From: Myxococcota bacterium
GTDB lineage: Bacteria; Myxococcota; Kuafuiibacteriia; Kuafuiibacteriales; Kuafuiibacteriaceae
Assembly (NCBI GenBank): GCA_039819565.1
Contig: JBCBRU010000001.1
Coordinates: 4,098-68,097, forward strand
Length of the DNA: 64,000 nt
Reading direction: 5' to 3'
Each line of letters begins with the position of its first letter. Positions within the stretch are counted from its first letter, which is position 1. Positions 27,577 through 59,320 of this stretch are shown one piece after another. The notes beneath the pieces were generated by a model. The model had not been told where the DNA came from. It saw only the letters and a program-made list of their open reading frames with translations, and made no database searches. The position numbers and the translations under genes were made by a program.

Positions 27577-27758
27577 TTGGAGGGCGGGAAGTAACAAACC
27601 CGGCGACGGCTCGCAACCGTTTGCCTCCTCGCGTTCGAGCCTTGAACGGACCGTCTCGCGTCCCGCCCCCCGCGCCAAGACCTGCAGCCGCGCCGTGCGC
27701 GCACGCGGTCCGACCCTCTCCGGTTGTTCACCGTGCCCCTGGGTGGTGCCATCGATAC

Positions 27759-32740: not shown

Positions 32741-32786
32741 GCGGACAGCCCTTCTGCCGGCAGCCCGGCCCATCGTCAAGGCTGAA

Positions 32787-33065
32787 TCAGGACTGCGGCT
32801 CGGGATCCGCGAAGGTGGGGATCAGCGTGAACTCGCGACCGGTCGAACCTTCCAGCTCCCTGTGAAGGAGCTTGGCCCCTTCCAGGTCCATGACATCCGT
32901 GAGCGGACGCCACTCAACGGTTTCGCCCTTCTTCCAGGCGCGGGCGGGGCCCTGGGGATCCTTCGCGATCCGTTCAACCTCAGCTTCGAGCTGGATGTCG
33001 GTGACCCCGAAGAAGGTCTCTTCGCGGTCATGATTGATGATCTGGTAGACGACGTGGGTGCCCAC
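32787..33065 (-). CDS. hypothetical small protein (92 aa)
   Basis: Compact ORF with balanced, non-degenerate composition (MGTHVVYQIINHDREETFFGVTDIQLEAEVERIAKD...). Divergent from the FmdB-like gene. No family recognised. Confidence 0.45.
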   Translation of the reverse strand: MGTHVVYQIINHDREETFFGVTDIQLEAEVERIAKDPQGPARAWKKGETVEWRPLTDVMDLEGAKLLHRELEGSTGREFTLIPTFADPEPQS

Positions 33066-55335: not shown

Positions 55336-57078
55336 ATGACCATCGCTCTGACCGCTCTCCTGGCCCTCTCCGCCTCGCCGTCCGGCCCTTCGATCTCGGA
55401 CCCGACCGAGATTCTCGTCGATCTGCGCGACGATACTACCGACGCTGACGCTCAAGACCTCGGTCGAGCACATGGGCTTCGGCTGAGGCTCAACTCGCCG
55501 CAGGCGGTCGACGAGCGTTTCTTCGTGGCGCCGGTGGCGCCCTCGCGGTTCGAGACCCTGGTGAAGGCCCTTCGAAAGGATCCGCGGGTCGAAAACGTCG
55601 AGCCCAACTGGGTCTACGGCCTTCCCCGGGGCGAGAACTTGGCCAGCCCCTCGGAGCTTCCCGAGGAGGTCGAGCCGACGAAGGGGCCGCGACCTCCCAA
55701 CGACCCGCTTTGGCCCAAGCAGTGGTCCTTCCGCATGGTCGACGCCCCCGAAGCGTGGACCCGGGCCAGCGGCCGAGGCGTGGTCGTAGCCGTGATCGAC
55801 ACCGGTGTGGCCTTCGAGAAATACAAGAAGTTCCGACTGGTCGAGGACCTCGACGGGACCCGCTTCGTCGAGGGCTACAACTTCATCTCGGACACCAAGC
55901 ACGCGAACGACGACCACGGCCATGGCACCCACGTCGCCGGCACCATCGCGCAGTCCACGTTCAACGGACGCGGCGTGGCGGGTCTCGCGTATGAGGCCAA
56001 GATCATGCCCCTCAAGGTGCTCTCCAAACGCGGTTTCGGCACCGCGGGGGACATCGCGGATGCGATCCGCTTCGCCGCCGATGAAGGCGCTCACGTGATG
56101 AACCTCTCTCTCGGGGGAGGACCGCGTTCCCGGGTCATGGAGTCGGCGGTGGCGTACGCTCGTAAGAAGGGCGTCTTGGTCATCTGCGCCGCGGGCAACG
56201 GCGGGCGGGCCCGGGTGGAATACCCAGCCGCCTATCCTGGCGCCTTCGCGGTGAGCTCGGTGGGCCCCACCAAGCGTCTGGCCTTCTACAGCTCCTACGG
56301 ACCCGAAGTCGCCGTGGCTGGACCTGGCGGGGACAAGAACCTCGGCGGCGACGACGGAGGCATCCTCCAGAACACCATCGTGGCCAACCGCCCGGAGCTG
56401 ACGAACCTATACCTTTCGTATCAGGGCACCTCGATGGCCACTCCCCACGTGGCCGGCATCGCCGCCCTCGTCATCTCCGCCGGCGTCACGGACGCCGCCA
56501 AGGTGGAGGCGATCCTTCGGGAGACGGCCGAGGACCTCGGCGCAGGAGGTCGAGACGACCGATTCGGACACGGCTTGGTCAACGCGGCCAAAGCGGTTGA
56601 GGCTGCCCAGGCTTCGCGCGGGAGCTGGGCCCACGGCCTCCTCGCGGTGATCGGACTCCTCGGCGTCGCGCTGAGGCGCGGGGTGCGCCTCGCCGGAGGG
56701 CGCTTCGCTGGCGCCCTCGTGGGGGCGTCGCTCGGAAGCGGTGTCCTCTCGGCGCTCCTGCCCGGCTTGGGCTGGCTGGTCTCGGCCCCCCTCTGGGACC
56801 TTGGGGTGTTGGGCGCCGCCGCCCACTTCACGGCGCTGTGGGCATCCGCCGTCCCGATGCTCTTCCTTGCGATCGGGCTCCTTGCGGTGCCGCGCCTTCG
56901 CGGACTCCTCATCGGCCTTTCCGTAGGGTGGGCTGCTCATCTAGGCATCACCGCCGTCGCGGGCGGCGTAGATGTTCTTGGGATCCCGGGCGAGGCGGGA
57001 TGGTTCGACCGCGCCTGGCTCGCCCTGCAATCTATCCTTCTTTTCGCTCTCGCCCTGCGCATCGCTCGCGCCCGCTGA
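55336..57078 (+). CDS. S8 subtilisin-family serine protease with I9-like propeptide and C-terminal polytopic membrane domain
   Basis: Signal MTIALTALLALSASPSG. Catalytic triad boxes VVAVIDTGV, HGTHVAGTIA and GTSMATPHVAGIAAL. The last ~150 aa contain about 5 hydrophobic helices. Confidence 0.9.
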   Translation: MTIALTALLALSASPSGPSISDPTEILVDLRDDTTDADAQDLGRAHGLRLRLNSPQAVDERFFVAPVAPSRFETLVKALRKDPRVENVEPNWVYGLPRGENLASPSELPEEVEPTKGPRPPNDPLWPKQWSFRMVDAPEAWTRASGRGVVVAVIDTGVAFEKYKKFRLVEDLDGTRFVEGYNFISDTKHANDDHGHGTHVAGTIAQSTFNGRGVAGLAYEAKIMPLKVLSKRGFGTAGDIADAIRFAADEGAHVMNLSLGGGPRSRVMESAVAYARKKGVLVICAAGNGGRARVEYPAAYPGAFAVSSVGPTKRLAFYSSYGPEVAVAGPGGDKNLGGDDGGILQNTIVANRPELTNLYLSYQGTSMATPHVAGIAALVISAGVTDAAKVEAILRETAEDLGAGGRDDRFGHGLVNAAKAVEAAQASRGSWAHGLLAVIGLLGVALRRGVRLAGGRFAGALVGASLGSGVLSALLPGLGWLVSAPLWDLGVLGAAAHFTALWASAVPMLFLAIGLLAVPRLRGLLIGLSVGWAAHLGITAVAGGVDVLGIPGEAGWFDRAWLALQSILLFALALRIARAR

Positions 57079-57524
57079 ACCCCTCCGATACTTTCGAGTC
57101 ACTTTCTCGACGTCGAGGGGTTGCACTGACCGCCTTCGAGGCGCATTGTGAAGCTGGAGCTGGGGAGAACCCCAACCCCTCCGAGAAGCTCTCGGATGGG
57201 TTGGAACTTACTCTCAGCTGAGCAACTCCAAAAGCCTCGGTGGCTCTCCGGGGTCGGAAGGGAGTTGCGGGAGGGCGAGCACCATCGAGAGCGAACTCGA
57301 GGAACATTCGAAATCCCGTTGAAAGATACCCATGCTTGGCATGGGGTGGTCGTGCGCGAGCCCGAGCGAAGCCAGGCCGGTCCGTCCTTGGTGCCATCTC
57401 TCACCCACCGCAACGCAACCCACGTTGCGCGAGAGTTGTATAACTGAGGAAAGTGACTTGTCTCGGCGAGCCGCGGCGTATCGTCAATCCCGCCCGGTAG
57501 AGCCGGCCCCGGCGCACGACGACG

Positions 57525-57570
57525 AAAGCCCGCCCCGCGAATCCATCGCCGGGCGGGCTTTGCTTTTTTG
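57525..57570 (+). terminator. rho-independent terminator
   Basis: AAAGCCCGCCC (57525-57535) pairs perfectly with GGGCGGGCTTT (57551-57561). The stem can be extended by 4 more bp with one mismatch. It is followed by GCTTTTTTGG (T6 tract). The minus-strand reading gives only 3 U, so it is plus-oriented. Confidence 0.8.
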
Positions 57571-57590
57571 GTGCAGCTTCGACAAGAGCC

Positions 57591-58223
57591 GTGTCCGTGC
57601 CCTCCCTCCAGGAGATCGTCGAGACCTTGGCAAACCTCGAAGGCTCGGCCGCCCCGATCCTCTTTTTGGTCTCCGTCGTCGACGTGGTGCTGTGTCTCCC
57701 GGCGGCCTGGCTCGCCTTTAGCGCCGGCGCTCTCCTGGGACTGGTCAAGGGCACCCTCGTGGTGAATCTCGCCGGAGTGACCAGCGCTGCCCTCGTACGT
57801 CTCCTCGCTCACGGCCCCGTGGGTCGCCCCGTGCTTGGCTGGCTGGAACGGAGCCCGAAGCTGAGCCTGATACGTCGAGTGCTCGAGGACGGTGGCTGGA
57901 AGCTGACTCTTTTGATTCGGCTCTCCCCGGCTTTGCCCCTCGGGCTCACCCACTGGCTATTCGGGTTCGTACGGCTCCCGCTCCCGGTCTATTTGCTCGT
58001 GACCGCGGTCGCGACCTTTCCCGCTCAGCTGATGTGGGCGCACTTCGGGGTCACGGGGCGCCAGGGCATCGAGCTTTGGGCCCATCCCGAGACGGCAGAC
58101 CCGCTGCAACTCGCGTTCATGGCCACGAGCGTGGTCGCCACGGTCGCGTCCGTGACGTTCCTCGGAGTGCTGGCTCGCCGCCGGGTTCAGGTCGAGATGG
58201 ACCGGGCGCGCGTGGCACCCTAG
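57591..58223 (+). CDS. TVP38/TMEM64 (DedA-related, SNARE-associated) family membrane protein
   Basis: GTG start; ~5 TM segments. Family-like core GGWKLTLLIRLSPALPLGLTHWLFGFVRLPLPVYLLVTAVATFPAQLMWAHFG. Confidence 0.78.
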   Translation: MSVPSLQEIVETLANLEGSAAPILFLVSVVDVVLCLPAAWLAFSAGALLGLVKGTLVVNLAGVTSAALVRLLAHGPVGRPVLGWLERSPKLSLIRRVLEDGGWKLTLLIRLSPALPLGLTHWLFGFVRLPLPVYLLVTAVATFPAQLMWAHFGVTGRQGIELWAHPETADPLQLAFMATSVVATVASVTFLGVLARRRVQVEMDRARVAP

Positions 58224-58234
58224 CTCAGGGACCG

Positions 58235-59320
58235 ATGCTCGACCTGTACGTCTCGGAACCCGACTCGGGCGAGATCCGGCGTCGCCGGTGGGCCTTCGCC
58301 GTGATCTCTGGTCCGGACGCGGGGCATCGCTTCATCCCTGACCGGAGCCCCGCGCTCGCGGGCGCGGCCCCCTCGGCCGATCTGTGCCTCTCCGACGAAA
58401 CGGTCTCTCGGCTCCACGCAGAGATCGACCTCTTCTCAGGCGGGATCCGGGTGCGGGATCTACAAAGCACCAACGGCACCTGGCGCGATGGGGAGCGCAC
58501 CCGATCTACCTGGCTCGGACCTCGAGACCGCTTTGGCCTCGGGGAGACCCGCCTTCAGATCATCGCCCTCGACACACCCGCCGTCCCGCCTCCGATGCCG
58601 GCCGAGTCCGATCTCGTCGCTGTTTCGGAGAGCACCCGGCGGGTGGCGAGGTGGGTGTCGATTCTGGCCGGTCTCGACGACGGGGTGGCGTTGGTCGGGC
58701 CGCGGGGATCCGGCCGAAGAACGTGGGCGAGGCGCCTTCACGAGATATCGCCGCGCCGCGACGGGCCGTTCGTGGAGGCCTTTGCCGGCCGCCCGGACCT
58801 CCTCTCAGAGGGCGGTCCGATGGCTCGGTCTGAGCAGGGGACGTTGCTTCTCGACACCCCCGGCGCCCTCGACCCCGGAGCCCAGCTCCAGCTTCTGGAG
58901 GCTCTCGACCGGGACCGCGCCCCGCGAGTTCTCGTCCGTGACGTCGCCCCGATCCACGGTCAACTGGTGCATGGGCTCGGCGAACGGCTGGCCCCGGTGC
59001 ATCTGCCCCTGGATCCCCTCTCACATCGTCCCGCGGATCTCGAGGCGTGGCTCCGTCGACTCGCGGCGGCCCGGGGCATGCGCTCTTTGGGAGCGGCGCT
59101 CAATCGCTGGCGACGTACGCAGCCCAAAACGAGCTTCGAGAGCTCGGCCCGGGCCTTCGAGGACGCGAGCCCGGAAGAGGAGACGCTGCGGGCTGCCGTC
59201 CTCGAAGACCTCCTCCGCAGCTTCGAAGGGGACGTGGACGCGGCCGCGAGGGCTTTGGCGGTGTCGTCTCGGGAGCTCTTCGCGGAGCTGTCGCGGCGCG
59301 ACGTACCTATCCCGGAGTGA
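58235..59320 (+). CDS. FHA-domain protein with degenerate sigma-54-activator-type AAA+ domain and C-terminal Fis-like HTH
   Basis: FHA: LAGAAPSADLCLSDETVSRLHAEIDLFSGGIRVRDLQSTNGTWRDGERT. AAA+-like VALVGPRGSGRRTWARRLH (no Walker Lys) and GTLLLDTP (no DE). C-terminal FEGDVDAAARALAVSSRELFAELSRRDV. Confidence 0.72.
   Translation: MLDLYVSEPDSGEIRRRRWAFAVISGPDAGHRFIPDRSPALAGAAPSADLCLSDETVSRLHAEIDLFSGGIRVRDLQSTNGTWRDGERTRSTWLGPRDRFGLGETRLQIIALDTPAVPPPMPAESDLVAVSESTRRVARWVSILAGLDDGVALVGPRGSGRRTWARRLHEISPRRDGPFVEAFAGRPDLLSEGGPMARSEQGTLLLDTPGALDPGAQLQLLEALDRDRAPRVLVRDVAPIHGQLVHGLGERLAPVHLPLDPLSHRPADLEAWLRRLAAARGMRSLGAALNRWRRTQPKTSFESSARAFEDASPEEETLRAAVLEDLLRSFEGDVDAAARALAVSSRELFAELSRRDVPIPE

Follow-up and report, generated by a model that had tools for sequence, protein, structure and literature searches.

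In bacteria, few noncoding RNAs exceed ~300 nt, and several that do have proved to have unusual roles. OLE, GOLLD, ROOL, raiA, and HEARO, large RNAs whose functions are unknown or came to light only recently, are each hundreds of nucleotides long, fold into many hairpins, keep conserved modules between variable regions, and were discovered through comparative genomics. Chromosomal small RNA (sRNA) and other noncoding RNA genes are intergenic, carry their own promoter and terminator, form several stem-loops, lack a conserved open reading frame (ORF), and may be restricted to a single lineage. The Myxococcota have large regulatory networks and very few described RNAs; among chromosomal RNA genes of this class, the best-known myxobacterial example is Pxr, from Myxococcus xanthus. 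How does a structured intergenic region from this phylum relate to these systems?

The element shares with chromosomal sRNA and noncoding RNA genes an intergenic position, its own promoter-like site and terminator, several stem-loops, the absence of a conserved ORF, and restriction to one lineage. It departs from them in that it matches no Rfam family and contains an invariant Shine-Dalgarno-like box followed by AUC, and its predicted length of 345 to 555 nt is several times that of a typical base-pairing sRNA. With the large RNAs it has in common its length, its many hairpins, its conserved modules set between variable regions, and its discovery through comparative genomics, but it has no match to them in Rfam 15 and conserves only ~150 nt, in 11 sequences. 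We propose that the gap in which the element lies holds an independently transcribed, lineage-restricted structured RNA gene of ~415 nt that has a promoter and a terminator of its own, a reading that we consider reasonably probable from the sequence comparisons set out here. The element is a new family within a known kind, that of chromosomal noncoding RNA genes that have their own promoter and terminator.

The window is the whole 64-kb stretch of DNA that was analyzed. When all of it was searched with Rfam 15 at gathering thresholds, only two tRNAs were recovered, and no family was found between positions 56950 and 57700 at E values of ≤10. The best match there was the sub-threshold RF01772 (rnk_pseudo, the Pseudomonas rnk leader). 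The likeness lies in a GC-rich terminator hairpin, AAAGCCCGCCC...GGGCGGGCUUU, with its U tract; the terminator alone was matched, at 24.9 bits against a gathering threshold of 55, and the element is not a member of that family. The initial annotation had failed to match the region by eye to known RNA motifs, and the covariance-model search agrees with it. No description of the element was found in the literature searched.

The gap is flanked by two plus-strand genes that encode an S8 peptidase with a membrane tail and a VTT/DedA-type protein (Table 1). Its lower GC content is real (0.62 overall, with 200-nt windows at 0.60 to 0.64, versus 0.65 to 0.77 in the flanks), but the dip is milder than the 55% that had been claimed. 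The initial annotation had also called the gap noncoding, with a 99-amino-acid (aa) ORF as the only ORF within it. In fact, 12 ORFs of at least 25 aa overlap the gap, and none is coding-like. Unlike the flanking genes, the gap has no GC3 excess in any frame, five gap ORFs gave no Pfam match, and no open frame with a conserved start and stop was found among the homologs described below. Six-frame translated comparison (tblastn) returned similar matches in every frame, in the core only and with stops inside. Protein coding was dropped on these grounds, that is, no Pfam match, no GC3 signal, no consistently open frame, and equal matches in all six frames; neither the 99-aa ORF nor any other is conserved, and the gap shows no coding signal. 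As to the upstream neighbor, the S8 peptidase has a C-terminal multihelix membrane domain with a weak match to DUF5942 and more than 1,300 homologs at E values of ≤1e-100, many of them labeled as Myxococcota or Deltaproteobacteria, and its gene usually sits behind two M16 peptidase genes.

Table 1. Features of the gap and its neighbors (window coordinates).
Feature	Position	Strand	Details
S8 peptidase with membrane tail	55336-57078	+	upstream neighbor
Gap	57079-57590	+	between two plus-strand genes, S8 peptidase and VTT/DedA type
Hairpin CCCCTC...GAGGGG	57080-57120	+	directly after S8 stop codon, abuts -35 box; outside the predicted RNA
Sigma-70-type promoter-like site	57121-57149	+	-35 TTGCAC (57121-26), 17-nt spacer, -10 CATTGT (57144-49)
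Predicted noncoding RNA, ~415 nt	57156-57570	+	promoter-like site and terminator, fold, no conserved ORF, no Rfam match
Variable 5' domain, two long hairpins	57158-57268	+	57158-57219 (apical part 57172-57204) and 57222-57268; from folds
Conserved core	57262-57349	+	GGGAGG box, AUC, hairpin 1, 23-nt linker, hairpin 2
Purine box GGGAGGG (Shine-Dalgarno-like) and AUC	57269-57286	+	AUC 9 nt on (57284-86); conserved
Hairpin 1, UCGAG-AGCGAA-CUCGA	57285-57300	+	model-based alignment, 8 sequences
Linker GAGGAACA-UUCGAAAUCCCGUUGAAAGAUA	57301-57328	+	conserved spacing
Hairpin 2, CCCAUGC-UUG-GCAUGGG	57329-57345	+	best supported helix
Variable central region	57346-57470	+	includes hairpin CGCAACG...CGTTGCG (57409-29); from fold
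Conserved 3' helix	57471-57497	+	CCG-C-GGCG (57471-78) with CGCC-CGG (57491-97)
Intrinsic terminator	57525-57570	+	15/16-bp GC-rich stem, loop AUCCA, then GCUUUUUU
Putative VTT/DedA promoter-like site, TTGCTT-N17-CAAGAG	57560-57599	+	boxes 57560-57588; overlaps terminator U tract
VTT/DedA-type gene	57591-58223	+	downstream neighbor

When the genome itself and 40 relatives were searched with a BLAST-type DNA method, only the window's own copy was returned, and for that reason this kind of search was judged too insensitive. Protein searches with the flanking genes revealed that G002, a genome of the same genus, keeps the order S8-gap-VTT; only ~95 nt of its 674-nt gap aligns with the window (57256 to 57349, 74% identity, E = 2e-9), and the flanking proteins are 66% (S8) and 41% (VTT) identical. 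A covariance model of the core recovered a third copy, in G016 from another genus, where it follows an SGL/NHL propeller gene and precedes a convergent gene. The protein convergent to this copy (L023, 605 to 1174, plus strand) has 189 aa and no Pfam match, and the GC content of the region is 0.52 to 0.60, below that typical of the family. Further relatives were found via close homologs of the S8 protein and their contigs. In L110, L113, L116, L117, L118, and L122, S8 is followed by a gap of 480 to 720 nt and then VTT; in L112 and L114, the gap is present, VTT is absent, and an FHA-domain gene comes next. In L110, L112, L113, L116, and L117, the core model matches the gap that follows S8, on its plus strand; L114, L118, and L122 are too diverged for this model yet share the remaining features. 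These eight loci, the window copy, G002, and G016 make up the eleven sequences compared here, all from one Myxococcota lineage. One additional contig, P0002, has the same S8-gap-VTT gene order with a 550-nt gap and is counted apart from the eleven.

The distribution of the element appears narrow. The exact pattern TCGAGGNACA-N20-26-CCATGNNNNGCATGG, sought in 185,579 species genomes and in JGI metagenomes, identified nothing beyond G002 and G016; its ~30 matches each in genome and metagenome contigs are near a chance level that was roughly estimated. When 401 Myxococcota genomes were scanned with a covariance model, the only matches beyond the window, G002, and G016 were partial and at chance level. 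With a model built from eight sequences, no further copies appeared in 20 genomes of the family, and there was no match downstream of S8 in other genera. Even within the genus, the genome G001 is without the RNA. Downstream of S8 and upstream of VTT, G001 has instead repeats of ~110 nt (...ACAGCAAAGACCACTTGA...GGGTTCAACCCAAGGGATTTCTGCTGTA...) that look like MITE or REP elements (L011, ~1470 to 1360 and 790 to 680, minus strand; L003, ~600 to 660 and 1140 to 1200), and its GC content is much lower in the repeat-bearing regions. In the more distant L123 (646 to 3874) and L124 (3001 to 5987), compared with 55336 to 59320 of the window, S8 is followed directly, with no gap, by an FHA-domain gene resembling a sigma-54 activator. 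From this arrangement, the RNA gene, alone or together with VTT, looks inserted into an M16-M16-S8-FHA row.

What is conserved across the eleven sequences? In the core, GGAGG followed after 4 to 9 nt by AUC or AUU is found in all of them. The GGGA of this purine box pairs with UCCC (57314-17) in the folds of the window copy and L116; judged from sequence, G002 and L110 could form this pairing as well, L112 in a shifted position, and L117 as AGGA/UCCU, and L113 and G016 differ in register. In hairpin 1, one pair is flipped in a compensatory way and two changes give wobbles; the helix is imperfect in L112 and G016, and L114 has an equivalent, AUCGA/UCGAU. Within the linker, ACA and hairpin 2 are always 23 nt apart in the seven core-type sequences in which the distance was read, and GAGGAACA/GGAGAACA is conserved, L117 and L118 included. 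In hairpin 2, the stem is kept while the loop varies. UCCGCGG/CCGCGGA replaces CCCAUGC/GCAUGGG in L113, with four double changes; L112 has CCCAC/GUGGG; and a U-A pair in L118 takes the place of the C-G or U.G found in others. Double changes occur in five of the seven pairs of hairpin 2, alongside three U.G wobbles.

For the two core helices in the model-based alignment of eight sequences, 92% of cells are standard pairs, versus 20 to 54% when one partner is slid along the sequence, and six pairs have changed on both sides. The covariation observed for both helices together was reached by 0 of 500 shuffles. The alignment used for these counts was fitted to the model, and the double changes come mainly from L113, L112, L117, and L118; therefore, we regard hairpin 2 as well supported and hairpin 1 as moderately so. 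Covariation support for the 3' helix, too, is weaker than that for hairpin 2. Of the helices that the initial annotation had put forward for a test of compensatory change, the hairpin at 57329-45 does covary, but the 5' and central hairpins could not be aligned in sequence. The wobble pairs also fit the plus strand only, because on the other strand they would be A.C mismatches, and this agrees with the direction of the promoter-like site and terminator. A minus-strand terminator at 57345 to 57329 was considered and rejected, given its poor U tract and wobble pairs that suit the plus strand. By eye, two other candidates were set aside: a sigma-54 promoter in the core, where the GG-N10-GC spacing is not found, and a CsrA-type sponge, for which GGA motifs are not enriched and the GGA of CCGGAUAG is not invariant.

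The second conserved module is the 3' helix, which is present in 11 of 11 sequences with six invariant pairs and which in most homologs reads CCG-C-GACGC...GCGUC-CGG, mostly followed by AUAG. Three sequences carry compensatory changes (G-C replaces an A-U pair in the window copy and L122, and L114 has AA/UU as its inner pairs), and three have a mismatch at pair 5 (G002, L110, and G016). Next comes the terminator. The terminator described in the initial annotation is borne out as a strong one, with a stem of -29.3 kcal/mol followed by T6; its inner loop is larger than a simple terminator scan allows, and for this reason that scan did not detect it. Canonical terminators are found in seven of the eleven sequences (the window copy, G002, L110, L112, L113, L116, and L122); among the four without one, L117 has a strong stem and a weak U tract.

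At the other end of the predicted RNA, a promoter-like site predicts a transcription start at ~57156, within 3 nt on either side. The pattern TTG[ACT]NN-N17-[CG]ANNNT is found at the equivalent place in 10 of the 11 sequences, located 40 to 204 nt into the sequence and with a spacer that is always 17 nt; L113 is without a good -35 box. The chance of a match to this pattern is 0.06 to 0.22 per shuffled sequence, and the joint probability is indicative only, because the pattern was derived from the same sequences. Strict matches number only 8 in the whole window, both strands counted. The promoter of the putative RNA gene is recognized at the level of sequence only. The two tRNA genes of the window likewise have TTGNNN-N17-NANNNN sites upstream (in 27577-27640 and 32741-32800, minus strand), TTGCGA-N17-TACTTC and TTGACG-N17-CAGAAG, which end 10 to 11 nt before the mature 5' end and offer a local view of the housekeeping promoters of this lineage.

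Folding is consistent with a structured RNA across its length. All of the helices listed in the initial annotation (57080-85/57115-20, 57172-57204, 57222-29/57261-68, 57329-45, and 57409-29) were found where it had placed them, and all are part of the plus-strand minimum free energy fold. Relative to dinucleotide-preserving shuffles, the gap has fold z-scores of -5.2 (plus strand) and -4.6 (minus strand), and the predicted 415-nt transcript of the window has a z-score of -5.0; nine nearby coding segments of 415 nt, used as controls, range from +1.9 to -2.4. The predicted RNAs of all 11 sequences, 345 to 555 nt in length, have z-scores of -2.5 to -9.1. In the homologs, the 5' domain (57 to 194 nt) likewise forms hairpins and the central region occupies 77 to 177 nt, and in neither can the sequences be aligned. 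The hairpin between the S8 stop codon and the -35 box is not conserved in sequence, several homologs have some hairpin at that place, and it may be the 3'-end structure of the S8 mRNA.

In total, these comparisons reveal a locus with its own promoter-like site, its own terminator, a structure backed by covariation, and no conserved coding frame. The initial annotation had left the choice between an independent structured sRNA ending near 57570 and a riboswitch-type leader of the VTT/DedA gene. The former now has comparative support from the promoter-like site, the conserved motifs, one covarying hairpin, and the terminators of 7 of the 11 sequences, as well as from the absence of a conserved ORF, the presence of the element without VTT in L112 and L114, and its unrelated context in G016. 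The element is constant while its downstream neighbor varies, and VTT has promoter-like sites of its own; on this basis, we favor an independent RNA gene over a cis-regulatory leader.

Could the element nonetheless be a long cis-regulatory leader? In that case, the promoter at 57121-49 would drive the downstream mRNA, and the terminator would be conditional, via alternative pairing with the 3' motif. Like riboswitch and attenuator leaders, the element is a structured RNA with a terminator shortly before a same-strand gene. Such a gene lies close behind it in 9 of 11 loci, which would permit a role in cis, and in the window the terminator ends 21 to 27 nt ahead of the VTT start codon. Some alternative pairings are also available: in L113, L112, and G016, the 3' arm GCGUCCGG has a possible partner on either side, upstream and downstream. 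The antiterminator proposed in the initial annotation is present insofar as CCCGCCC (57489-95) and GGGCGGG (57551-57), in the terminator 3' arm, both exist and could pair, but the former is the 3' arm of the conserved helix, and the alternative pairing recurs only in G002. When the sequences are read for pairing between the 3' motif and the terminator, it is possible in the window copy and G002, weak in L113, and absent in L116 and L112; that is, a mutually exclusive terminator/antiterminator pairing is not conserved. Moreover, no aptamer family was matched even at E values of ≤10, and, contrary to what is seen in ligand-binding aptamers, sequence conservation is lacking over most of the RNA. 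Nor is the element constantly linked to one regulated gene, as riboswitches and attenuators would be: the downstream neighbor is VTT in eight loci, the FHA-domain gene in two (L112 and L114), and a convergent gene in one (G016).

The VTT gene itself may provide a further argument against such a leader. Between the element and VTT, the pattern TTGNNN-N17-NANNNN is found in L113 (5360 to 5399), L116 (5462 to 5504), L117 (5367 to 5408), and L118 (5306 to 5347) and, in a weaker form, in the window, whose site is the weakest because its -10 box is without the final T. These are sequence matches only. In all five, the -10 box ends 8 to 11 nt before the VTT start, which suggests that the VTT mRNAs are leaderless or nearly so, and the start codon in the window is probably the GTG at 57597 and not 57591. 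With promoter-like sites in this position, the argument that the 21-nt distance from terminator to VTT makes read-through compulsory loses force. Overall, a riboswitch-type leader of VTT/DedA is not supported, and we regard a long cis-regulatory leader of any kind as unlikely.

A different kind of explanation dispenses with a functional RNA. In this scenario, the gap would be what is left of inserted DNA, or it would regulate the adjacent genes at the DNA level, through promoters and protein-binding palindromes, and its hairpins would be incidental. The gap and VTT do resemble an insertion in the M16-M16-S8-FHA row, both core hairpins are palindromes as DNA, and the distribution is narrow, with the same-genus G001 lacking the element. 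However, the compensatory changes in hairpin 2 preserve pairing and not sequence, which suits an RNA structure and not a binding site recognized by its sequence; the wobble pairs are strand specific; fold z-scores are strong in 11 of 11 divergent copies; and promoter and terminator point one way. For these reasons, we consider an explanation at the DNA level to be quite unlikely.

We also weighed whether the transcript might serve as the mRNA of a leader ORF or some other very short peptide, with its start at the AUC or AUU after GGAGG and with translation as the regulatory act. The combination of an invariant Shine-Dalgarno-like box and AUC/AUU is unusual for a purely noncoding RNA. In the window, the product would have 12 codons (IESELEEHSKSR). 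The order GGAGG, 4 to 9 nt, and AUC/AUU holds in all eleven sequences; I-E-S/G/C-x-L/V-E is common to seven (I-E-S-x-L-E-E-Q); a stop falls at codon 13 in four; L122 has an insertion of 3 nt; and some changes look synonymous (AGC/AGU, GAG/GAA, CAA/CAG, and CUC/UUG), with the change of CUC to UUG in L112 breaking hairpin 1. Set against this, a canonical start is found only in G002, as an ATG two codons upstream and too near GGAGG. The peptides range from 9 to ~47 residues and are unrelated in L114, L117, L118, and L122; GAGGAACA is in a different frame in L117; and, between the window copy and G002, compensated 1-nt indels in the linker preserve nucleotide motifs and not the frame. The six frames, too, behaved alike in translated search. 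Since GGGA can pair with UCCC, the purine box may be structural. Leader-peptide attenuators of the Thr, His, and Trp type differ from the element, which has only the AUC/AUU start and no codon run and whose terminator is ~230 nt downstream; the Thr_leader model scored 16.3 bits against a threshold of 55. A micro-ORF therefore seems to us very doubtful.

Returning to the independent RNA gene, we posit the following mechanism. The sequence features, their conservation, the covariation of hairpin 2, and the lack of a coding signal are observations, whereas transcription, the exact ends, and the function of the RNA are predicted from them. A housekeeping-type promoter, TTGCAC-N17-CATTGT, right behind the S8 gene would start the RNA, and its synthesis would halt at the intrinsic terminator, with the VTT/DedA gene read separately, from its own promoter. 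The resulting RNA would consist of variable 5' and central hairpins and two kept modules, namely, the core and the 3' helix just upstream of the terminator. We speculate that this RNA acts in trans as a regulatory RNA, that the conserved core is the surface that pairs with a target RNA or binds a protein, and that the variable hairpins and the terminator stem lend stability. Might so large an RNA (0.35 to 0.55 kb) do something less conventional? It could mimic a start site, either as a sensor of ribosomes or initiation factors or through a noncanonical micro-ORF whose translation remodels the core, or it could serve as a ribonucleoprotein scaffold; we hold these ideas to be long shots.

The lineage in which the element is found is known from metagenomes only, and the candidate RNA would add to the sparse RNA record of the Myxococcota. 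Its predicted ends and conserved modules, together with covariance models that work, make the candidate directly testable. The comparison also corrects the annotation of the locus: the VTT/DedA gene is probably transcribed from a promoter of its own into a leaderless mRNA, and its expression would have no need of read-through at the terminator of the neighboring RNA gene.
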